Assembly: GCA_017467445.1 (NCBI GenBank) | Contig: JAFTSG010000003.1 | Coordinates: 75,753 to 139,752 of the forward strand | Length of the DNA: 64,000 nucleotides | Direction of reading: 5' to 3' | Origin: Clostridia bacterium | GTDB lineage: Bacteria; Bacillota; Clostridia; RUG12999 | Shown: in pieces, positions 8,298 to 23,119 of the stretch | Position numbering within the stretch: the first letter of the stretch is position 1 | Layout: the number at the start of each line of letters is the position of its first letter | Notes under the pieces: generated by a model | What the model saw: only the letters and a program-made list of their open reading frames with translations | Database searches by the model: none | Told to the model about the DNA's origin: nothing | Position numbers and translations under genes: made by a program

Positions 8298-9062
8298 TTA
8301 TTTACGTTTAAACTGCCGCACAAGTGCTATTATTCCGGTGGCTGCAAGCACGATAAGACATACAGTAAGTGCCGTTATTATTTCCGGATACTGACCGGCA
8401 TAGTAACGCACGGAAACGTGTTTTACAAGAATGCCGATATATCCCTATATTACTGCCAGCATATACGGAAAATCCTTGTTTCTTAGGGCTGTTATGGAAG
8501 CTATTATTGTGCCAAGTACAAGAACTATTATTGTCCACGTGCTTTCCGAAAATAGAAATCCGTCAAATCCGATACTTACAAGAAAAGTTGTTACGTTTGC
8601 AATTGTTGCAATAGTTATCCATCCAAAATATATGCCAAAGGGTAGACGCAGGAAAAATCCCTCGTCTTTTAGTGTACTACTTATTGAACCGAGTGAAATC
8701 AAAAGAATAATCATTAAAACAAGTGCAAGACCTATAAGATAGTAACTCCACGATACTATCCAGAGGGTATTTGCAATTGACGAAACCGCAAACAACGTAC
8801 GTACTTTATCAAGCAGCTCTGGTTTTTTTACCGTTATAAACTGATAAATTGTAAATATTCCAAGAAGTGTATAAATCACTCCCCATATTGCAAATGTGCC
8901 CGCTGCCGGTGCAAAAAGATTTGGGTATGCGTCCGACACCTGTGCTGTAGGTGTATTGTTAAACACCCCGAATGTTGCCATTATATTTGCCGCTATCATT
9001 ATAACAAAGGTTGCGGCAGCTATAATTTTAAGTATAAAGGTATTATTTTTTTGTACAGGCAT
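8298..9062 (-). pseudogene. polytopic membrane protein (tentatively TspO/MBR-related) with one in-frame TAG at 8445-8447
   Basis: The 205-aa ORF 8445-9062 stops at TAG. The same frame then continues for 48 sense codons (GYIGILVKH...ITALTVCLIVLAATGIIALVRQFKRK) to TAA at 8298-8300, encoding a further TM helix. Confidence 0.55.
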
Positions 9063-9225
9063 TCAAATCATCTCCTTTATATGATTATATGATATTTCTA
9101 TCTATTCAATGCAAAAAGGTGTTGTACTAATCAATAAAACTTACCATGAATAAGAGTTTTGCTATTTACAATAACTTAATTTTACTATATAATACTATTG
9201 TAAGATTATTTTGGGAGATGAAGCA

Positions 9226-11058
9226 ATGTCAGTTCTTCAGTCGGTAAATTCACCCGAAGATTTAAAAAAACTAACCGCTTGCGAGCTTGAACGCTACTGC
9301 TACGAAGCTCGTGAATTTCTTATAAATACTGTTTCGGAAACAGGGGGGCACCTTGCGTCCAATTTAGGTGTTGTGGAGCTTACCTGCGCACTGCATTACG
9401 TATTTAACTGTCCTACGGACAAGCTTGTATGGGATGTGGGACATCAGGCATACGTTCATAAAATGATTACCGGACGGCGTGATTATTTTTCTTCTCTACG
9501 TTCTCTCGGAGGTCTAGCCGGATTCCCGAAAACCACCGAAAGCGAATGTGACTGTTTTAATACCGGACATTCATCCACTGCAATTTCTGCAGCACTCGGC
9601 ATTGCACGTGCACGTGATTTAAATGGCGAGGATTTTAACGTTATCAGCATAATCGGCGATGGTGCGCTTACCGGTGGCATGGCGTTTGAAGCGCTTGCCG
9701 ATGCAGGTCAATCCAAAAATCGTATGATTGTTATTGTTAATGACGACGAAATGTCCATTTCAAAAAATGTTGGCGGCATTTCAAATCATCTTTCCAATTT
9801 GCGTACGGGTACTACTTATAACCGCATAAGAACAAAGATTAAAAAATTGGTTGAAAATGCACCCGTACTTAAAAAGGTTGCACATAAACTGCATGACAGT
9901 TTTAAATATTCCATGGTGCCGAATACTATTTTTGAAGCACTGGGTTTCAGATATATCGGTCCGATTGACGGACATAATTTAAGTCAGCTTATTAAGATTT
10001 TTGAAAGGGTCAAAACCCTTGACGGAAACATTGTAATACACGTTAAAACCGTTAAAGGAAAAGGTTATCAGCCTGCCGAGGATGAGCCAGAAGCATATCA
10101 CGGAGTATCAAAACCGTCCGGCGGACCTACCTATTCATCCGCTCTCGGCAAGGTGCTTCTTGAAGCAGCAGAAAACGACAACCGCATTGTTGCAGTTTCT
10201 GCATCTATGCAGGCAGGTACCGGCATTGAGGAATTTGCAAAAAAATATCCCGACAGATTTTTTGACGCGGGAATTGCTGAAGGGCATGCCGCAACACTTA
10301 CCGCAGGAATGGCAAGCTGCGGATTTATTCCCGTCTTCCCCGTTTATTCGAGTTTCCTACAGCGCGCGTATGACCAAGTGCTACACGACATCTGTCTGCA
10401 GAATCTGCATGTTGTACTTTGCGTTGACAGAGCAGGACTTGTTGGCGAGGACGGCGAAACCCACCACGGAGCGTATGATATTTCGTATCTTAAACATATG
10501 CCCAATATGACAATTCTTGCTCCGTCGTGTATTGCAGAGCTTTACCGTATGTTTGACTATGCACTTTATACACTTACAGGACCTGTTGCAATTCGCTATC
10601 CCAAAGGACCTCAAAAGCTTGACATACTCTATCATACTCCCCTTGAATATGGTAAAGGTGAGCTTCTTATTTCAGGCAAAGATGTGCTTATTGTTGCATC
10701 AGGAAACACTGTGCCTGTTGCATTTGAGGTATCGGATATACTTACAAGACGCAACATTGCAAGCAGCATTATTGACCTTAGGTTTGCCTCACCGATTGAC
10801 GAAGAATTGATACTTTCAAATCTTGAAGATAAAAAGCTTGTTGTTATGATTGAAGATAATGTTGACAAAGGCGGTATAAGCGAAGATGTTGTGAAAGTTT
10901 TGTATGAATCGGGCATCCGTATTCCGTTTTTGCAGCTTGGGCTTGGGTGCACACCAATTTCGCACGGAACGGTAGATGACCTTCGCACGGCATATGGTCT
11001 TTCTGCTGAAAAAATGGCGGAAAAGATAATGTATAAACTGCTTAAATTCAGACCATAA
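9226..11058 (+). CDS. dxs: 1-deoxy-D-xylulose-5-phosphate synthase
   Basis: About 610 aa from the ATG at 9226 (GGGAG RBS 8 nt upstream). Blocks WDVGHQAY, GHSSTAISAALG, IIGDGALTGGMAFEAL, GEDGETHHG. Confidence 0.95.
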   Translation: MSVLQSVNSPEDLKKLTACELERYCYEAREFLINTVSETGGHLASNLGVVELTCALHYVFNCPTDKLVWDVGHQAYVHKMITGRRDYFSSLRSLGGLAGFPKTTESECDCFNTGHSSTAISAALGIARARDLNGEDFNVISIIGDGALTGGMAFEALADAGQSKNRMIVIVNDDEMSISKNVGGISNHLSNLRTGTTYNRIRTKIKKLVENAPVLKKVAHKLHDSFKYSMVPNTIFEALGFRYIGPIDGHNLSQLIKIFERVKTLDGNIVIHVKTVKGKGYQPAEDEPEAYHGVSKPSGGPTYSSALGKVLLEAAENDNRIVAVSASMQAGTGIEEFAKKYPDRFFDAGIAEGHAATLTAGMASCGFIPVFPVYSSFLQRAYDQVLHDICLQNLHVVLCVDRAGLVGEDGETHHGAYDISYLKHMPNMTILAPSCIAELYRMFDYALYTLTGPVAIRYPKGPQKLDILYHTPLEYGKGELLISGKDVLIVASGNTVPVAFEVSDILTRRNIASSIIDLRFASPIDEELILSNLEDKKLVVMIEDNVDKGGISEDVVKVLYESGIRIPFLQLGLGCTPISHGTVDDLRTAYGLSAEKMAEKIMYKLLKFRP

Positions 11059-15027: not shown

Positions 15028-16110
15028 TTATCCTCGCAAAATCTTATTACACCAGCTGTCCCATGTTTCTGTCTGAATATCGAGAACGGAATAAGAATCC
15101 GCAAGATGCCGCCCGTGGCTGTCCGCCAGGTCATCTGTTGTTCTTCCTGCAATAAGAACGTAAAAGAATTTCACATCCTTATTCGGGTCAACGCCCAGTT
15201 TGTAGTCGGGACCGCGAAATGCACCATAAGGCTTTCTGCCATTCTTAACTTCAGCAAGAACTTCATGAACAAACCTACGGTATGTTTCATAATGACCTTT
15301 TATCCACTCTGCCCGTTCATTTAACTGTTCTCTACCTTCTGCCGCAAAAGATGTAAAGGCTTTATAATGGTTTTTTCTGAAAATCCCTCGTTTTGCACCT
15401 TTTATTTCAATTAGGTACACATTCATACGGGAACGCCCCGTAAAGACGGCAAAATCAACCCTGCCGCTGCCTACCGGAAATTCGCAAAAACAAACATATT
15501 CCTCCGGCGAATAAGCATAAAACTCCCCTAAAAGAGATAAATCCTCTTTTAAAAATTCTGCAAGCTCTCGTTCTGTAGGATTTTTATCCAGTAATGCTTT
15601 AAACTCGTGTTTGGAATGCTGATTTAACTTTATCTCCAGCCGACTTTGTGTAATTTCTGGATTTTCCGAATATTCAAATTGCTCTATTGCCGGAATCCCG
15701 TTCAGCGCATCGTAAATTTCTTTCATAACGCGCTCGTCATTTTTATATAAATCAAATTCGCTTTCTTCACAATCCAGTATTTTCAATATCTTTGCAAAAG
15801 AAATTGATCTCCATATTGGTCTTTCGTCTTCATCAAAACTAACCATAGAAAATTTTTCTTCCCGGTCAAATGGGCGCGGATAATGTTCTATAATTTGAGC
15901 ATTTTGCGGTATTTTTTGCAATTCTGTAAGCTGCTCCAGTATAAGTTCCAGCGCATTTGTAACCGATGTTGAACGAGCTTCTTCCGATAAGTCAGTAAGT
16001 ACAATATGAATTTTTGATTCCTTGTTTGTAAATATTCTGACTCTGCACAAAGAAGCTTCTGACGCAAATCCATATGTTTTAAATCTGAAAACAAAATCTG
16101 TAATTTTCAT
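15028..16110 (-). CDS. Shedu-like (DUF4263-type) PD-(D/E)xK nuclease, putative anti-phage effector
   Basis: 360 aa. C-terminal half ERELAEFLKEDLSLLGEFY...GSGRVDFAVFTGRSRMNVYLIEIKGAK...EQL matches the D...E.K core and the preceding E..FL....LG helix that I recall for SduA/DUF4263. Confidence 0.6.
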   Translation of the reverse strand: MKITDFVFRFKTYGFASEASLCRVRIFTNKESKIHIVLTDLSEEARSTSVTNALELILEQLTELQKIPQNAQIIEHYPRPFDREEKFSMVSFDEDERPIWRSISFAKILKILDCEESEFDLYKNDERVMKEIYDALNGIPAIEQFEYSENPEITQSRLEIKLNQHSKHEFKALLDKNPTERELAEFLKEDLSLLGEFYAYSPEEYVCFCEFPVGSGRVDFAVFTGRSRMNVYLIEIKGAKRGIFRKNHYKAFTSFAAEGREQLNERAEWIKGHYETYRRFVHEVLAEVKNGRKPYGAFRGPDYKLGVDPNKDVKFFYVLIAGRTTDDLADSHGRHLADSYSVLDIQTETWDSWCNKILRG

Positions 16111-16216: not shown

Positions 16217-16609
16217 TTATCTGTCTGAATTTGTCATACAACGTTTTTGCTGAAGTCTGTCAAGAGCTTCACCGAAACGCTGGAAATGCACAATTTCTCG
16301 CTGACGCAGGAATTTGATAACGTCGTTTACGTCTGGGTCATCCGATACTGTAAGGATATTATCATACACCACTCTTGCTTTTTGTTCTGCTGCGAGGTCC
16401 TCTACTAAATCAGCAATCGGATCGCCCATTACGTTAATTGCCGTAAGTTTGAGCGCTTCACCGCCGGCATTTACCGGATACACACCTTTGCCGTGGTCAA
16501 TATAATATGCACCAAACGGGCTGTTTTCAATTTCTGATTCTTTCAGGTTTTTGGTAAGCTGATGCACAATTGTGCCTACCATTTCAAGATGTGCAAGTTC
16601 CTCTGTTCC
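16217..16609 (-). CDS. cotJC: cotJC (Mn-catalase-family spore coat protein), 3' segment of a split gene
   Basis: The frame opens at the junction with (G)TEELAHLEMVGTIVHQL... and continues through DLAAEQKARVVYD...FLRQREIVHFQRFGEAL, as in Mn catalases/CotJC. It has no start of its own except an internal Met. Confidence 0.85.
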   Translation of the reverse strand, partial: GTEELAHLEMVGTIVHQLTKNLKESEIENSPFGAYYIDHGKGVYPVNAGGEALKLTAINVMGDPIADLVEDLAAEQKARVVYDNILTVSDDPDVNDVIKFLRQREIVHFQRFGEALDRLQQKRCMTNSDR

Positions 16610-16931
16610 TGTGTTCTATACCATTTTGCTCTGTTGAAAAAAATTGAAAATTTTATTTTCAGCAATAGCACAGAAAAGTATGATTTTGAAAAATATTTTA
16701 AAAAAATTTTATATTGGACATAAATTTAGACAGTGTCGTTGTTATTAATATAGAGAGGTATATATACTAGTATAAAATAATAATACAACTTAACATTCTT
16801 AAACAACTCTTAATCAGATGGGGATTGTATCTATTAGGTATTTTGCAAGGTTGGGTGGTTGTGATATGTGTATAAAGTAGCCGTAGTCAATACGTTTTTT
16901 TGTTTTAATCAGGTAAATATTTGTAAAAGTA

Positions 16932-16960
16932 TTGAAAAAGATAAAGTTTTGTGTTAAAAT
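16932..16960 (+). promoter_or_regulatory. sigma-A-type promoter
   Basis: TTGAAA (16932-16937), 17-nt spacer, TGtTAAAAT extended -10 (16955-16960). Confidence 0.55.
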
Positions 16961-16967
16961 ACAATAG

Positions 16968-17092
16968 TCACGTAGTTAAATATTCTATTATACACCATAA
17001 GGCTTGCGTTGGTAAAAACGCAGGCTTGCTGTTCGTTCCCTTATGGTGTAATGGATTAACTGCGTGACAACAGGAGCATAGCCTCGTTTTTC
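16968..17092 (+). promoter_or_regulatory. structured 5' leader (nested helices), candidate cis-regulatory RNA of unknown class
   Basis: P1 is 16968-16979 / 17056-17067 (12 bp, one G-U). P2 is 16991-17002 / 17039-17050 (12 bp, perfect). P3 is 17003-17009 / 17018-17024. Lies between a promoter and a terminator. Confidence 0.4.
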
Positions 17093-17093
17093 G

Positions 17094-17121
17094 TGCGTGG
17101 GCTTATGCCCACGCATTTTTT
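17094..17121 (+). terminator. intrinsic terminator/attenuator upstream of the 17142 CDS
   Basis: TGCGTGGGC-TTAT-GCCCACGCA followed by TTTTTT, then GGAGG RBS and ATG. Confidence 0.75.
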
Positions 17122-17141
17122 AATTTATGGAGGTTTTGCAA

Positions 17142-18041
17142 ATGAAAAGATTTCTAAGTGTTTTGATGGTTGTGATATTATCAGTAAGTGTATTTATTGT
17201 TCCTGTATCAGCCAATAATGAGTTGTCAGTTGTGCTGAATGGTGAACCATTAGAATTTGACGTTCAACCACAAATAATTAATGGTCGTACCATGGTTCCT
17301 ATGCGTAAAATCTTTGAAGAATTAGGCGCAACTGTAGATTGGGATGGTAGCATACAAAAGATAACTGCAAAAAAACAAGATATAACAGTTGTTATGCAGA
17401 TTAATAGCAATATATTATCAGTAAACGGAAACAATGTTACATTAGATGTTCCACCGCAATTAGTTAATGGAAGAACTCTTGTTCCTGTAAGAGCGGTAGC
17501 GGAAAGTTTTGATATACATGTATTATGGGATGAAGTTTATAATAATGTTGTTTTATCTACATACATTCCTCTTGAAACATCAATACAAGCATTCAATTAT
17601 CTAGGTGCTTGGTTACTTGAGAATGGAAAAGTTTTTGGAGAATATGTATATGTAGGTTGGGAAGTAGTAGAGGGTGTTAATGCAGAAATTCGTTGTTATC
17701 CTGAAAGTGGGAATATAGCATTTTATCTTGATAGTTATCAAAATGACGGCATAATGACTGCAATAAATATATGGCCGACTTATGATGGAAACGATGTCTA
17801 TGCAACATATATTAGCGGTTCTCAAACTTGCAGAATTGATGGAAATATTAATATGGCGATGCATACCCCAAATTATCCACTTGCTTATAGAGAGTGTGAG
17901 CCAGGGGAATTTGAAACAACATACAACTTACTTGATGATACAAGAGAGAGAATTAATGTTTTGTTAAATGAAGTTGACTTGCTTTTAGCATTTGAGAATT
18001 CAGGTGTTAATTTAAATACGTTAGGTTTTAAAAAATATTAA
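17142..18041 (+). CDS. secreted protein with copper-amine-oxidase-N-terminal-like (stalk) repeats
   Basis: Signal peptide MKRFLSVLMVVILSVSVFIVPVSA. Two repeats of LNGEPLEFDVQPQIINGRTMVPMRKIFEELGATVDWD / VPPQLVNGRTLVPVRAVAESF. Start chosen 8 nt after GGAGG. Confidence 0.7.
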   Translation: MKRFLSVLMVVILSVSVFIVPVSANNELSVVLNGEPLEFDVQPQIINGRTMVPMRKIFEELGATVDWDGSIQKITAKKQDITVVMQINSNILSVNGNNVTLDVPPQLVNGRTLVPVRAVAESFDIHVLWDEVYNNVVLSTYIPLETSIQAFNYLGAWLLENGKVFGEYVYVGWEVVEGVNAEIRCYPESGNIAFYLDSYQNDGIMTAINIWPTYDGNDVYATYISGSQTCRIDGNINMAMHTPNYPLAYRECEPGEFETTYNLLDDTRERINVLLNEVDLLLAFENSGVNLNTLGFKKY

Positions 18042-18062
18042 TATTTTATTTCTTCATGGGCG

Positions 18063-18091
18063 TTGACTATAGTATTTAATGGAGGTATAAT
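18063..18091 (+). promoter_or_regulatory. sigma-A-type promoter
   Basis: TTGACT (18063-18068), 17-nt spacer, TATAAT (18086-18091). Confidence 0.6.
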
Positions 18092-18097
18092 ATATAT

Positions 18098-18257
18098 AAG
18101 TAAATTATATGAATATATGATTTGCTTGTAATTATGGTATCGAGTGCAACGGCACGGGCTTAATGATTATTTAAGTTGGTGGCGGTGGCGGTGGTTTCTT
18201 TAGTGGATGCTAAAGATATTAAATAATGAATAGAGCATAAGCCTGTATTGGCTTTAA
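18098..18257 (+). ncRNA. candidate small RNA or leader (no ORF longer than 16 codons)
   Basis: Lies between a near-consensus promoter and a strong terminator. Contains a GGTGGCGGTGGCGGTGG micro-repeat. Confidence 0.35.
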
Positions 18258-18289
18258 GTGTCGTTACAATCGGTAACGGCACTTTTTTT
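18258..18289 (+). terminator. intrinsic terminator
   Basis: GTGTCGTTAC-AATCG-GTAACGGCAC followed by TTTTTTT. Confidence 0.8.
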
Positions 18290-18324
18290 GTGCAGAAATA
18301 TTTTTATAAGGGGGGGTAACGGAT

Positions 18325-18819
18325 GTGTTACATAGCGGTATTTTCAAAGAGATAGTTAAGAGAAATAAGAATTATAATGGTATCAGCATCAAGTTTACAA
18401 CTGTTGCAGTATTTATCAGGAGAGTTCTTGACTTGTTAGGGTTGTATAGTGTAGCGGATGCGGAAAATGGTATGGTTAGAGCAATTAAGGATGATGAAGA
18501 ATTTGAGATTATTGTTGACAGGACAAATCAAAGGATAGTGTTAGAGGCAGACCTTTGGAGTGTTGGCACAAGAGCCTTTGCAAAGAAGAAAGTCCAGACG
18601 CTTGAAAGACTTAACAGATATAATCAAAATTTAAACTTCGGGTATTGTATGCTTGTTGGGTTTAAGGTTATATACCATACAACAGAAAGTATCTATATGG
18701 GTGTAGATGATGCGGAAGATATGGCAGTTGCAGACGGGTTGATAAGGCATTATATGATTGATACAAAGTTAATAAAAGATATGGTATTTTCTGATGGACT
18801 TGATTGCGTCGGCACGTAA
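18325..18819 (+). CDS. hypothetical protein (element cargo)
   Basis: 164-aa ORF with a GTG start 7 nt after a G-rich RBS (AAGGGGGGG). I recognise no family. Confidence 0.45.
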   Translation: MLHSGIFKEIVKRNKNYNGISIKFTTVAVFIRRVLDLLGLYSVADAENGMVRAIKDDEEFEIIVDRTNQRIVLEADLWSVGTRAFAKKKVQTLERLNRYNQNLNFGYCMLVGFKVIYHTTESIYMGVDDAEDMAVADGLIRHYMIDTKLIKDMVFSDGLDCVGT

Positions 18820-19290
18820 GCGAAAGTGTTTGTTTAAAAGCGTTGGAAAATTTACGGTAATTTTTCAACCAACACAAATTTGCTGGATTTTCAGTAGGTA
18901 GATTTTTGAAATTTTAGTTATCGGATGCAAAAAGTGTCAAAAGTGTTGGTTTTAGTTCGGGAGTGGAATGTGAAAATTTGCAGATTATTTCAATCTTATT
19001 TATCTTATACCATTAAATAGTGGTCGCAGAAAATTAAGATTAAAGAAATCAACAAAAATTTGATTTTAACATCAAGAAAAGGTTGAAATTACGGCATTTT
19101 GTGATTTTAAAATTTGCATCGTGATTTTGTGTTGAAATGACAGTATTTTTATAAAATTACATAAAATTTGTGGTTAAGAGATGAAAAAAGAGAGTTCATA
19201 TATTTTAAGTTATGGGTACGTTCTACCTATACAGGCTACTTGTGAGGTTTGGCGTATTCAATAGATTTATTCATAAGGTAGGTGTTAAAT

Positions 19291-19881
19291 ATGGAATACG
19301 GTTATGTTCGTGTGTCAAGCAAAAGTCAGGCAGAAAATCATTCTCTAGCAGAGCAAGAACAGACAATCTTAGAAAAGTATCCTTCGGCAGAGATACGCAG
19401 AGAAGTGTTTACTGCTGCAAAAGACTTTAATAATAGACAGGTGTTTAATGACCTAATTGACAGGTTGACAGATGGGGATTGTTTGATAGTTTCCAAGATG
19501 GATAGATTTTGCCGTAATGTTCGCGAGGGGTTAGATATCATAGAACATTTGATGGATAAGGGTATTAAGATAGATATACTGAATTTAGGTGTTATAGATA
19601 ATACGCCTGTTGGCAGGTTAACTTATACAATCTTATTGTCTTTTGCAGAATTTGTGAGAAATATGATTGTAGAGCGTACACAAAGCGGTCGCGAACTTGC
19701 AAGACAAAAGGATGGGTACATAGAAGGCAGACCAAGAAAATTTAGCAACACACAACTCGCATTGGCGATGCAGTTGTTAGAAAACCATTCATATAAACAA
19801 GTTTCATCGATGACAGGTATATCAAAGAGTACACTACAAAGAGAAAAGAAAAGGACAGTTGACAAAAATAACAGGACATAA
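19291..19881 (+). CDS. small serine recombinase (resolvase/invertase family)
   Basis: [13 protein letters not shown] catalytic-Ser N-terminus, [19 protein letters not shown]-terminal HTH ([17 protein letters not shown]). ATG placed behind an AAGGTAGG RBS. Confidence 0.85.
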
Positions 19882-19993
19882 ATTTTAAAAAATTAACTAA
19901 AATCTAAAAAAATTTACTGATGAGAGCAAAACTGACTAAAATGCACACAGTTACCTTAAATTAAGTATCAATTCGTAAGGGAGGGTACTTAAA

Positions 19994-20212
19994 ATGGGTA
20001 GTGCATTAAGACAACCTTATAACGCATATACATCTATTGGTGGTGTTATGCCTATGGGAAATAAAGTTAATGTTGTTCTTTCAGATAAAGAGAAAGAGAA
20101 CTTAAATCACAGTCTTAAATCTTCTGTATATAAAGAATTATATAGAAAGTCTCTTATTACAGATAGAGAGTTAAGATTATTGTTAGAAAAAGCGCCTAAA
20201 TTTTTAAATTAG
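19994..20212 (+). CDS. small hypothetical protein (candidate accessory or directionality factor)
   Basis: 72-aa ORF with a GGGAGGG RBS, directly upstream of the large recombinase gene. Confidence 0.4.
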   Translation: MGSALRQPYNAYTSIGGVMPMGNKVNVVLSDKEKENLNHSLKSSVYKELYRKSLITDRELRLLLEKAPKFLN

Positions 20213-20225
20213 GGGCTGAGATATC

Positions 20226-20258
20226 GGAGTGGTTGCGTTATAATACAGTGACCACTCC
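20226..20258. promoter_or_regulatory. inverted repeat enclosing a TATAAT box upstream of the large recombinase gene
   Basis: GGAGTGGT (20226-20233), 17-nt spacer, ACCACTCC (20251-20258). TATAAT at 20239-20244 lies in the spacer. Confidence 0.35.
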
Positions 20259-20299
20259 ACAAATACATTAGAAAAATAGTTAAGTGAGGTTAAAGAATT

Positions 20300-21982
20300 A
20301 TGGTAGATTTGAAAAGATTAAGTAGTAGTAACGTAGTAGCATTTAGTCCTTTTAATGTGTTAAATGATGCAAAGGCGTTGCGCGTAGCCGCTTATGCAAG
20401 GGTTAGTACAGATAAAGATGACCAAGCCAATAGTTTTGAAAGTCAGGTTAAATATTTTACAGAGTTTATTGACAAACAAGAAAATTGGCAGTTGGTTAAG
20501 GTTTATAGTGATGATGGTATTTCAGGAACATCAACCAAAAATCGTGTTGGGTTTAACTCAATGATAGATGATGTTACGGCAGGTAAAATTGATTTTATTA
20601 TAACAAAAGAGGTTTCGCGCTTTGCCAGAAATACAGTTGATACATTGCAGGTAACAAGAGACCTGAAAGAAATGGGTGTTGGAGTTTACTTTATGCTTGA
20701 TAACATTAACACACTTGACAAAGATGGCGAACTTCGCTTGACGCTTATGGCATCTCTTGCACAAGAAGAAAGCAGAAAGACATCAGAACGCGTCAAGTGG
20801 GGGCAGAAAAGACAAATGGAAATGGGTGTTGTCTTTGGTCGCAGCCTGCTTGGGTATAAAGTAGTTGAAGGTAAGTTATATCTGGTTGAAGAAGAAGCAG
20901 AAATTGTTAGAAAGATATTCCATAAATACCTCAATGAAGGTAAAGGTACTCATATAATAGCAAGGGAACTTAAAGAAGAAGGTATCAAGACGTATAACCC
21001 TGATGGTCGTGCAAAATATAAGAATGATTGGTCAAACACACAGATTTTGCGTGTTCTTCGCAATGAGAAATATGTTGGAGATTTGGTGCAAAAAAAGACT
21101 TGGACACAAAACTTTTTAGACCACAAGAAAAGGTATAACAGGGATAATGAAGAGATGGTTAGAATTGAAAACCACCATCCAGAGATTGCAATTATATCAA
21201 GGGATATGTGGAATGCGACACAAGCGGAGTTGCAACGTCGTACGACAACGGCAGAACAGAAATCTAAACATAGTAATAGGTATTGGGCATCAGGTAAAAT
21301 CTATTGTGGGGTATGTGGCGAAAGATTTGTAAACAAAATAAAAAAGACATCAGCAGGCACATCAAGGGCTTGGAATTGTATGAACCATATCAAACCACAC
21401 GCTTTTCGTAATGCAGAGTGTTCTATGTCAGAATGGGCAAGTGACAGGAGTATGAAGAATATTGTTCTTTATATCCTTAATATGTTAGTTGAGAGCAAAG
21501 ATGAACTTAAGACAGAGATTGTAAAGGAGATTTCGCAGTTAAATCTCGAACAAAAAGTTAAGTCAACAGATGATATTCAAGATAAAATTGACAGATTAGA
21601 ACAGAAAAAATTAAAATTGATTGACATTAGAACAGAGGGTGAAATCTCAAAGGAAGATTTTATGAAAAAGATAACTCAATTTGAAACAGAGATTTCAGAG
21701 TTGAAGATACAGTTAGAAGAAATAAAAGAACTTGCTACCACTAAACAACGTCAGCAGGATAGGATGGATAGTATTATCAAGGAAATTGACAAGGTATTGC
21801 AGTTAGATAGTGAAGATTTGGATGAACTGTTAGGAACAGTTACACAAAGTATAACAGTTTATGAAGGTCATACTGTTGTAGTAAGGCTTAAGGATGTACC
21901 TTTTAATTTCAAGGTAGTCTATAAGTCAACAGGTAAATTAGATACATATAGAACAGAGATTTTAAGTCTTGAAGTGGTATAA
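20300..21982 (+). CDS. large serine recombinase (SpoIVCA-like)
   Basis: 560 aa. RVAAYARVSTDKDDQANSFESQ catalytic N-terminus, YSDDGISGTS, recombinase domain, Cys-containing zinc-ribbon region and a C-terminal coiled coil. Confidence 0.9.
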   Translation: MVDLKRLSSSNVVAFSPFNVLNDAKALRVAAYARVSTDKDDQANSFESQVKYFTEFIDKQENWQLVKVYSDDGISGTSTKNRVGFNSMIDDVTAGKIDFIITKEVSRFARNTVDTLQVTRDLKEMGVGVYFMLDNINTLDKDGELRLTLMASLAQEESRKTSERVKWGQKRQMEMGVVFGRSLLGYKVVEGKLYLVEEEAEIVRKIFHKYLNEGKGTHIIARELKEEGIKTYNPDGRAKYKNDWSNTQILRVLRNEKYVGDLVQKKTWTQNFLDHKKRYNRDNEEMVRIENHHPEIAIISRDMWNATQAELQRRTTTAEQKSKHSNRYWASGKIYCGVCGERFVNKIKKTSAGTSRAWNCMNHIKPHAFRNAECSMSEWASDRSMKNIVLYILNMLVESKDELKTEIVKEISQLNLEQKVKSTDDIQDKIDRLEQKKLKLIDIRTEGEISKEDFMKKITQFETEISELKIQLEEIKELATTKQRQQDRMDSIIKEIDKVLQLDSEDLDELLGTVTQSITVYEGHTVVVRLKDVPFNFKVVYKSTGKLDTYRTEILSLEVV

Positions 21983-22057
21983 AGAAAATGGCAAAGCATA
22001 CTGATTTCAGTAGGCTTTGCCTATCTTTGTATAAAGGAGCAAAATCGTCGCTGATAG

Positions 22058-22243
22058 ACCTATATCCGTCAGGATTGCTTTTGCCATATCGTCTTCCATA
22101 TGGTAACGTTGCGACAGATAGCGAAGTGATGCCGCAATTTCACCATTTGGTCCACCGTACTGTGAAATGATGTAAGCGGCAAGTTTAGGGTTTGTATTTT
22201 TGATTTTTATCGGGTACTGCAATTTTTTAAGATAATTCCACAT
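22058..22243 (-). CDS. cotJC: cotJC, 5' segment of a split gene
   Basis: MWNYLKKLQYPIKIKNTNPKLAAYIISQYGGPNGEIAASLRYLSQRY...AILTDIG is a Mn-catalase/CotJC N-terminus. After G62 the frame runs into element DNA and stops at 22007. Confidence 0.85.
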
Positions 22244-22259: not shown

Positions 22260-22505
22260 TCAATCCTTTTCCCAAGGCCACGGACCGTCCATCCATGCCC
22301 ATCTTTCGGAATTCATATTGTTTTCACTTCTGAGAGGACCATAATCATCCTCGTATTCTTCTACAAGGTCTTCAAGCTTTTCGGCAACAGATTTGTGCAT
22401 TGCCAATGCCTTTTTGTCGGTAGGATTGGTGTCCAGAAACAGGTTTAGTTCTTTTTCTACAAATGCATATTCCATTATTTCCTGTAACAAATCTTCTCTT
22501 GACAT
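22260..22505 (-). CDS. cotJB: spore coat protein CotJB
   Basis: 81 aa. LLQEIMEYAFVEKELNLFLDTNPTDKKAL...YEDDYGPL matches CotJB in size and pattern; positioned between cotJA and cotJC. Confidence 0.8.
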   Translation of the reverse strand: MSREDLLQEIMEYAFVEKELNLFLDTNPTDKKALAMHKSVAEKLEDLVEEYEDDYGPLRSENNMNSERWAWMDGPWPWEKD

Positions 22506-23119
22506 CAGTCTTCCTCCTTCATTTCATAAACATTTTTCGGCAAATCCAGAATTTTGAAGAGTGTTCCCCGTTTAAGTGCTCTGTGAGGTTCATTAACTCC
22601 TTCAAAATCATGTGGTTTTACACAGGCATATCCTGTTCGCATACAACCGCACGGCTGCATCGGTTTTGGGGACTCGGGTCTTTCCGGTCTTTGTGGAGGA
22701 CGGTTTTCCTGCATTGGTGGACGATTTTCCGGTCTTTGCGGAGGACGGTTTTCCTGCATCGGAGGACGATTTTCCGGTCTTTGCGGAGGACGGTTTTCCT
22801 GCATTGGTGGACGATTTTCCGGTCTCTGCGGAGGACGGTTTTCCGGTCTCTGGGGGCGCATCTGCCCGTTATTTCCGTTATTACCATTATTGCCGTTTGG
22901 CGGACGCTGTGGGCGTTGCTGACTTATTGTGGGAACACTCCACATATCGTCCTCCTCGCTACCTTCCGGCGTGCCATGAATAGAACGAAATCCGTTATTC
23001 ATATCATAGTTATACATATCATCTGTCATTCCACGACCTGTAATGTCCATAAGTCGTCTCATGATTTCATCTGCACCGTTAGTTCTATCGTTTCCGTTAT
23101 TATACATAACTACCTCCAT
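22505..23119 (-). CDS. cotJA: spore coat-associated protein CotJA with an expanded proline-rich repeat region
   Basis: C-terminal GYACVKPHDFEGVNEPHRALKRGTLFKILDLP resembles the CotJA signature. First gene of the cotJABC order. Confidence 0.7.
   Translation of the reverse strand: MEVVMYNNGNDRTNGADEIMRRLMDITGRGMTDDMYNYDMNNGFRSIHGTPEGSEEDDMWSVPTISQQRPQRPPNGNNGNNGNNGQMRPQRPENRPPQRPENRPPMQENRPPQRPENRPPMQENRPPQRPENRPPMQENRPPQRPERPESPKPMQPCGCMRTGYACVKPHDFEGVNEPHRALKRGTLFKILDLPKNVYEMKEED
22686..22866. repeat. 45-bp tandem repeat, 3 full copies plus a partial one, inside cotJA
   Basis: Units start at 22686, 22731, 22776 and 22821 (GGTCTTTGCGGAGGACGGTTTTCCTGCATYGGWGGACGATTTTCC). Encodes ENRPPQRPENRPPMQ on the minus strand. 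Confidence 0.9.

Follow-up and report, generated by a model that had tools for sequence, protein, structure and literature searches.

A 64,000-nucleotide stretch of contig JAFTSG010000003.1 from a Clostridia bacterium (hereafter the window, in whose coordinates all positions are given) carries a 5,451-bp intervening element within cotJC. The segments at 16584-16633 and 22035-22084 are very probably the hybrid attachment (att) sites of this non-phage element, which would have been integrated in the Gly62 codon of cotJC by its own large serine recombinase (LSR). The crossover is assigned with high confidence to the dinucleotide CC at 16608-16609 and 22059-22060, which reads GG on the gene strand. 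The evidence comes from the symmetry of the reconstructed attP, from the rejoining of the host gene, and from the bases shared by the two junctions of related elements.

Probable attachment sites and the crossover dinucleotide

The attL-type junction (16584-16633, + strand) comprises a chromosomal B′ half on the ELAH-coding side (16584-16607), CC at 16608-16609, and the element P half (16610-16633). The attR-type junction (22035-22084, + strand) comprises the element P′ half (22035-22058), CC at 22059-22060, and the chromosomal B half (22061-22084). An earlier note on this DNA had proposed a CC crossover at the centre of a symmetric attP, and its reading of the letters is exact. CCT is common to both junctions (16608-16610 and 22059-22061), and the distal arm motif GAGCAAAAT at 22037-22045 (+ strand) is the exact reverse complement of its partner ATTTTGCTC at 16623-16631 (+ strand), which occupies half-site positions 14-22 and is likely contacted by the zinc-ribbon domain of the recombinase. 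The joined element ends read AGGAGCAAAATCGTCGCTGATAGA CC TGTGTTCTATACCATTTTGCTCTG on the + strand, such that 13 nt separates each 9-mer from CC. The predicted attP joint 22060|16610 reads ...GCTGATAGACC|TGTGTTCTAT... and the predicted attB joint 16609|22061 reads ...CCTCTGTTCC|TATATCCGTC...; the corresponding 50-bp sites are AGGAGCAAAATCGTCGCTGATAGACCTGTGTTCTATACCATTTTGCTCTG (attP) and TCAAGATGTGCAAGTTCCTCTGTTCCTATATCCGTCAGGATTGCTTTTGC (attB). Over its ~50 bp, attP is dyad-symmetric about CC, whereas attB is asymmetric and lies wholly within coding sequence. The left and right CC copies are non-palindromic and in the same orientation (head-to-tail); therefore, recombination between them would delete the intervening DNA, not invert it.

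With CC as the centre, the longest perfect symmetric run in the window attP is 9 nt, and 17 of 30 positions are complementary. When the centre is scanned from -6 to +6 nt, complementarity reaches 15 of 25 positions at GG and at most 10 at the shifted centres. Among 200,000 random joins of two places taken from the window itself, a perfect symmetric run of at least 9 within ±30 nt of the join occurs at a frequency of ~1.3-2.2e-4, and thus the 9-bp repeat is not a composition effect of AT-rich DNA. At least 17 complementary positions out of 30 occur in the same null at a frequency of 6-8e-4. The attB arms had been described as much less symmetric than those of attP, and they are indeed complementary at only 7 of 25 positions, which is the background level.

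The position of the junction is fixed independently of symmetry, because rejoining the host gene restores an open reading frame (ORF). The flanks are the two halves of one minus-strand gene, and joining 16609 to 22061 yields an uninterrupted ORF of 191 codons (...LTDIG|TEELAHLEM...). This ORF matches Pfam Mn_catalase (E = 4e-53), holds the conserved DIGTEELAHLEM motif, and is 75% identical, in silico, to intact relatives. The cotJC 5′ part (22061-22243, minus strand) provides codons 1-61, while the 3′ part (16217-16609, minus strand; 96-98% match to residues 57/60-191 of the rejoined protein) provides codons 62-191 and the stop. The interruption lies within the Gly62 codon, which is restored as GGA and whose first two bases are the crossover pair (CC on the + strand, GG on the gene strand). 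Every glycine codon begins with GG, and this glycine is invariant, so that all cotJC genes contain the crossover pair. An unbroken cotJC with GGN at the Gly62 codon is found at 14 loci among 41 relatives, and several others match only residues 1 to ~64, or ~55 to the end. In the integrated state, the cotJC 5′ frame continues into the element as far as a stop at 22007, and the resulting product of 78 aa lacks the ELAH metal-ligand motif.

In the window alone, CC had been preferred to CT by symmetry only; a comparison of related elements now fixes the choice. A search with the LSR provided the 80 closest homologous loci (44-93% identity), and in 76 of them a cotJC fragment lies beside the recombinase gene. 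All 94 junctions fall on the same GG, namely the 67 N-side junctions (right copy in the window, 22059-22060) and the 27 C-side junctions (left copy, 16608-16609). The element arms behind these junctions are diverse, with six or more clearly distinct sequence types. Cultured carriers within the clade, which has at least 277 members, include Lachnospiraceae bacterium JLR.KK009 (L096), Caldicoprobacter algeriensis TH7C1 (L054), and Lacrimispora saccharolytica An817 (L047). The LSR reaction needs only the central dinucleotide to be common to attL and attR, and the shared core was therefore measured in the 17 elements for which a single contig includes both junctions. The pairing is doubtful in one of these, L056, whose two cotJC pieces lie on opposite strands, and removing L056 alters no conclusion. 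The shared core includes GG in 17 of 17 and consists of GG alone in six (L025, L026, L037, L040, L041, and L051). No shared base lies 5′ of GG in 10 of the 17, and none lies 3′ of it in 11. L025 and L026 encode recombinases 92-93% identical to that of the window and have the same attP arms, and their junctions share GG alone; thus, the exchange for this enzyme must occur at GG, i.e., at CC on the window's + strand.

The proposed LSR-type geometry of attP also holds across the family. The summed dyad symmetry, a descriptive score, is 247 matches at GG and at most 139 at centres shifted by 1-6 nt, and the recombinase has the full LSR architecture (see below). The attP bases that flank GG are A in 23/27 and T in 62/67 junctions and are themselves dyad-symmetric. 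In LSR systems, attB holds the distal attP motif at a position shifted by 5 bp towards the centre (Rutherford et al. 2013, PMC3783163). Positions 13-24 of the attP half-sites were compared with the attB half-sites at offsets of -8 to +11. In the ELAH-side attB half, the best match to the distal motif is at +5 bp with a descriptive score of 210/408, as compared to a mean of 91 at the other offsets and a next best of 151. In the window, TTGCTC occupies attP positions 17-22 and TTGCAC occupies attB positions 12-17, and a TTGCNC-type motif is kept at the same distance from the centre across the family. In this half-site, the recurrence of the distal motif at +5 bp agrees with the LSR att model; the other attB half has no clear peak.

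The recombinase, its candidate partner and the proposed excision

The LSR gene (20300-21982, + strand) encodes an intact protein of 560 aa with Pfam Resolvase, Recombinase, and Zn_ribbon_recom domains, and its stop codon lies 77 nt from the right CC. The catalytic domain (PF00239, E = 7.7e-34, residues 29-177) harbors the motif YARVSTDKDDQ with Ser35 and aligns to 3g13 and to gamma-delta resolvase. The recombinase domain (PF07508) is matched at E = 1.3e-23 and the zinc ribbon (PF13408) at 26.9 bits against a cut-off of 25.3, with a Cys-rich ribbon at ~residues 346-374. Residues 75-520 align with the SPbeta integrase SprA (9dxh, E = 2e-16). A long charged helical segment (~400-500) aligns to SprA up to residue 510 and, by this alignment, would correspond to the coiled-coil region. 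The recombinase is very likely to be active on 16584-16633 and 22035-22084.

Directly upstream lies orf72 (19994-20212, + strand), which encodes 72 aa and is a candidate recombination directionality factor (RDF). In LSR systems, attP × attB recombination takes no protein besides the recombinase, whereas attL × attR also depends on an RDF. By tblastn, orf72 is found in 18 loci, and a profile search detects it in 35 of the 80 loci, including Caldicoprobacter, where it precedes the LSR gene in the same orientation; it is also present in elements that have no small resolvase. In the AlphaFold model (predicted local distance difference test, pLDDT, of 75), a beta-hairpin precedes two helices, the first of 21 residues and the second short. 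Known RDFs are small proteins with little resemblance to one another (PMC5025042, PMC11722253), and therefore the tight co-conservation of orf72 with the integrase fits an RDF. By analogy with gin, skinCd, and SPbeta, the chances that orf72 is a directionality factor permitting attL × attR recombination are about evenly balanced.

Following the LSR mechanism described elsewhere (Rutherford 2013; Shin 2025 preprint), recombinase dimers would occupy each site, the distal motif being contacted by the zinc-ribbon domain and the inner part by the recombinase domain. Synapsis of the sites would follow, and the four strands would be cut with a 2-nt stagger at CC. Upon rotation of half of the complex by 180 degrees and religation of the ends, the expected products are a repaired cotJC and a 5.45-kb circle carrying attP. 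In this scheme, orf72 would permit recombination between attL and attR, and excision would be timed to the sporulating mother cell. The proposed timing, which is modelled on gin, skinCd, and SPbeta, is given roughly equal weight for and against.

The distribution of the elements points to mobility. In L025, the LSR is 93% identical to that of the window, while the host CotJC is only 47% identical, which implies recent between-species movement and hence an active integration system. Taken together, the sister elements with 92-93% identical LSRs reside in hosts whose CotJC is only 47-57% identical. When the cotJC ORFs were reconstituted by frame-walking, the part 3′ of Gly62 was open to the stop codon or the contig end in 17/17 two-sided loci (including the doubtful L056), and the canonical 61-codon N-terminal part was kept in 11/17.

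Several results weigh against this interpretation. The loci are related and are not independent samples, such that the symmetry and offset scores are descriptive and not probabilities. In the window, the two attP arms agree at only 5 of their inner 13 nt, and the N-side attB half-site has no clear +5 peak over the offsets compared, leaving recognition unexplained there. The predicted attP junction GTATAGAACACAGGTCTATC has no exact match in the metagenome and viral contig collections. The P′ arm alone likewise has none in either, and since this arm variant is itself absent from both, the negatives for the attP junction are uninformative. The exact LSR and orf72 proteins occur only in integrated copies of the same strain, from at least five independent samples, and exact-protein look-ups returned neither a record of the rejoined CotJC protein nor an empty-site allele of the strain. 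Samples with this strain include SRR12529332, SRR12529359, and SRR12529365. Alignment upstream of orf72 and a sigma-70 scan gave no sporulation promoter assignable to sigmaE or sigmaK, the scan finding sigma-70-like consensus matches only. Finally, orf72 has no sequence relative in Pfam, PHROG, or PDB and is unlike known RDFs, and its model has no Foldseek match better than E = 0.9.

A free attP was also sought with the LSR in phage and plasmid collections; the two candidate phage records yielded none, and the plasmid matches are at most 46% identical. Two records named 'Bacteriophage sp.', MT837874.1 (L117) and MT839280.1 (L118), were considered as free circles and rejected, as they are integrated copies with cotJC fragment flanks and no terminal repeats. 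Their LSR is 41% identical, and cotJC is broken at the same codon. Both are unannotated records from human faeces and represent bacterial chromosome fragments, not phage genomes. The sequence CATAAATT near 19877 was rejected as a sporulation promoter: it falls within the 3′ end of the resolvase gene, and its sequence is not kept in distant elements. Many contigs from metagenome-assembled genomes (L015, L017, L018, L020, L023, and others) end 0.1-1.7 kb from the cotJC junction. These breaks are probably due to near-identical elements in several species of one sample. Because assemblies tend to break at the elements, split cotJC genes are expected to be under-counted in surveys of such genomes.

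Different readings of the junctions themselves have little room. Exchange at the overlapping CT (16609-16610/22060-22061) would also be compatible with the shared CCT, and the window alone cannot separate it from CC. However, centring attP on CT reduces the symmetric run from 9 to 2 and the complementary positions from 17 to 11 of 30; L025 and L026, with their 92-93% identical enzymes and the same arms, share GG/CC only; and the base that CT would require is unshared in the 10 elements with no common base on that side. The CT exchange is thus very unlikely. Small resolvases act on res or hix sites and not on attP × attB. The element does hold two serine recombinases, and the smaller (19282-19881) could in principle act at the junctions in place of the LSR, yet it is absent from L028, L031, and L032, which have the same P′ arm and keep the LSR, and it is the LSR gene that abuts the att site. 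Nor does a merely coincidental 9-bp repeat sit well with a chance of ~2e-4 and with a motif that keeps its distance from the centre across diverged elements. The probability left to either of these, the small enzyme or coincidence, is slighter still than that of CT.

More weight attaches to the possibility that the sites and the crossover are as described but the element is an integrative island, with excision that is rare or serves transfer only, no sporulation timing, cotJC switched off, and a paralogue covering for it. An intact Mn-catalase/CotJC-like gene (35% identity) on the host contig C15, the integrated state of the element in every assembly of the strain found, the lack of a recognisable sporulation promoter, horizontal spread, and the tolerance of C. 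difficile to the loss of individual cotJC paralogues (PMC11222575) are all in keeping with such an island. In contrast, all characterised LSR elements in mother-cell sporulation genes (skin, SPbeta, and gin) excise during sporulation (PMC5025042, PMC5595907, PMC4191935). The cotJC parts are still open frames in all hosts examined, which would be expected with continued rebuilding of the gene and with recent insertion alike. An island of this kind is a serious contender, although on balance the less probable outcome. A fixed relic, in which the att sites are true integration scars and the recombinase or its partner is dead, would account for the failure to find a free form or an empty site of the strain. 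It is hard to reconcile with an intact LSR ORF that retains all catalytic and DNA-binding domains, with att arms perfectly conserved at the distal motif, with undecayed cotJC halves, and with the recent movement indicated by the contrast between LSR and CotJC identities, and it is considered unlikely. The preferred explanation is an element integrated at Gly62 by its own LSR through the CC dinucleotide.

The element, its host gene and a second insertion hotspot

The element spans 16610-22060 (+ strand; 5,451 bp), with boundaries that are ambiguous by the 2-3 shared bases. Its G+C content is 33.8%, as compared to 38-40% in the flanks, and its five ORFs all lie on the + strand. A temperate prophage was rejected: at only 5.45 kb with five ORFs, the element has no virion structural, packaging, or lysis genes, and its PHROG matches are limited to integrase/invertase and one family of unknown function. 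An Rfam scan of the element gave nothing above threshold.

The cargo includes a gene with a Cu_amine_oxidN1 domain (17127-18041, + strand; Pfam E = 3.9e-39) and a gene for a 164-aa protein (18325-18819, + strand) with no Pfam or PHROG match, which is common to seven sister elements (50-88% identical in L025, L026, L030, L034, L036, L037, and L043). The small serine recombinase (19282-19881, + strand) is a 199-aa resolvase/invertase with a C-terminal helix-turn-helix (Pfam Resolvase E = 4.6e-28; PHROG DNA invertase). Its absence from L028, L031, and L032 and the invariable presence of the LSR suggest that it is an accessory protein and not the excisionase. It is 99.5% identical in L030 (3141-3737) and L034 (5257-5853), whose large recombinases are only 77-78% identical to that of the window; cargo has thus been exchanged between elements of the family.

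Several short repeats may have regulatory roles. An inverted repeat with 27-nt arms (21978-22033) lies between the recombinase stop and the att site; the hairpin is kept in sister elements, contains a terminator-like site at 22010-22024, and is likely a two-way terminator. Upstream of orf72, GAGAGCAAAAC at 19922-19932 resembles the attP-arm motif GAGCAAAAT and might be a recombinase-binding or autoregulatory site, although a single 8-mer of this kind carries no significance by itself in 5 kb of AT-rich DNA. Between orf72 and the recombinase gene, the inverted repeat GGAGTGGT...ACCACTCC at 20227-20259 encloses a TATAAT box and looks like an operator or attenuator for recombinase expression.

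On the chromosome, cotJB (22260-22505, minus strand; Pfam CotJB E = 9e-28) lies upstream of cotJC in one operon, preceded by a cotJA-like gene (22505-23119, minus strand) whose match to Pfam CotJA (E = 2.6e-5) is slightly under the curated cut-off. These two upstream genes identify the split gene as cotJC of a cotJABC operon. In B. subtilis, cotJ is expressed in the mother cell. The host is represented by a metagenome-assembled genome of 1.05 Mb that is 61% complete. It encodes SpoIVA (inside the window) and Spo0A and is therefore a spore-former. The intact Mn-catalase/CotJC-like paralogue, at C15:395-940, could buffer the loss of the split cotJC. Directly downstream of the cotJC 3′ part and outside the element, a Shedu-type nuclease gene is found on the minus strand (15028-16110; Pfam SduA_C E = 1.5e-17).

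A second cotJC insertion hotspot is observed at the QYGGP codons (~29-32). In L047 (8678-8794, 15252-15356), L067 (8584-8700, 12180-12272), and L086 (3378-3509, 8086-8181), residues 1 to ~32 are separated by 3.5-6.5 kb from residues ~26-64. The gap holds a different LSR, 24-26% identical to that of the window, such that cotJC is in three pieces. L025 (cotJC 8759-8863) also has a second LSR (8981-10321), and residues 1-27 were not found within that locus. The cotJC of the window has the Gly62 insertion only.

These observations allow a broader, tentative proposal, which we regard as rather doubtful. The LSR and orf72 may be a branch of an old dedicated module that has tracked one cotJC glycine codon through Oscillospiraceae, Lachnospiraceae, Caldicoprobacter, and other Clostridia, down to 41% enzyme identity, while the attP arms diverged. 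With the second LSR family, cotJC might then be put together in sporulation from as many as three pieces, through the action of two independent recombinases. If true, nature would have provided a series of orthogonal integrases all reading one conserved attB. At this locus, a prediction made by eye has become a defined 50-bp attP and attB with a comparatively fixed crossover. Dozens of diverged LSRs appear to read the same attB in a coding sequence, with the crossover on two code-invariant glycine bases and attP arms that co-vary with the enzyme. They form a natural data set for how serine integrases read DNA and for the mining of integrase/att/RDF sets for genome engineering. In addition, the finding adds to the gut-clostridial sporulation genes whose intact form may depend on programmed excision of DNA.

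Comparison with known intervening elements

LSR-excised elements in sporulation genes are well established and include skin in sigK, SPbeta in spsM, vfbin in spoVFB, and gin in gerE. The cotJC element is a further example of these intervening elements, and its mechanism is not new. As judged from sequence, it appears to share the features of LSR systems and of intervening elements that were tested, with the +5 recurrence seen in one attB half only; these include a mother-cell sporulation gene as the target and an ORF restored in silico. In the parts of the literature consulted, skin-like or phage-like insertions are already noted to recur in cotJC (Abe et al. 2013, via bioRxiv 10.1101/2021.11.22.469490), and a skin-like element is mentioned in cotJC of Laceyella sacchari (Galperin et al. 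2022, bioRxiv 10.1101/2022.02.25.481979). As far as those excerpts go, the earlier mentions concern Bacilli-type hosts and come without att-site anatomy, crossover position, or a clade-wide survey, whereas the host here belongs to the gut Clostridia.

The closest analogue is gin from Bacillus cereus ATCC 10987, which interrupts gerE and employs the LSR GirC, the 42-aa RDF GirX, and the small recombinases GirA and GirB (Abe et al. 2017, PMC5595907). Both are small non-phage elements in a mother-cell sporulation gene, and each encodes a single LSR, additional small serine recombinase(s), and a tiny partner protein without recognised motifs. In both, the att site forms an inverted repeat whose symmetry centres on a predicted dinucleotide, and horizontal transfer is apparent without transfer genes of their own. 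However, the target and host differ (gerE in Bacillus as compared to cotJC Gly62 in gut Clostridia), and gin has a 9-bp consensus core in contrast to the 2-3 bp shared here, where excision is predicted from sequence. With 72 aa and no family or solved-structure match, orf72 has not been directly compared with GirX.

The skinCd element of Clostridioides difficile sigK (LSR CD1231 and RDF CD1234; Serrano et al. 2016, PMC5025042) is also clostridial. Its att sites have inverted repeats around the exchange point, and its LSR needs a small element-encoded RDF for attL × attR recombination, a role for which orf72 is a candidate only. In contrast to the cotJC element, skinCd is 14.6 kb, prophage-like, and inserted in sigK, with 12-bp conserved motifs at the exchange point and a timing that derives from its sigmaE/SpoIIID-controlled RDF.

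SprA of SPbeta (spsM, Bacillus subtilis; SprA/SprB; PMC4191935, PMC5499854; cryo-electron microscopy, PMC11722253) is the best full-length solved relative of the window LSR. The SPbeta system shares an attP of ~50 bp, an attB of ~40 bp, and a central dinucleotide, and its excision rebuilds a spore-envelope gene. Yet SPbeta is an active phage of 134 kb, the identity of the LSR to SprA is low, and SprB and orf72 have no detectable similarity. SprB docks on the zinc-ribbon domain of SprA, where the coiled coil has its base. The Listeria A118 integrase (LI integrase; PMC3783163) offers a parallel for the sites, with a 9-bp distal motif for the zinc-ribbon domain in each attP half-site and a 2-bp crossover. 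In that system the motif lies 5 bp nearer the centre in attB, while in the cotJC element, with the motif at positions 14-22, the +5 shift is seen in the ELAH-side half only and the zinc-ribbon contact is deduced from sequence.

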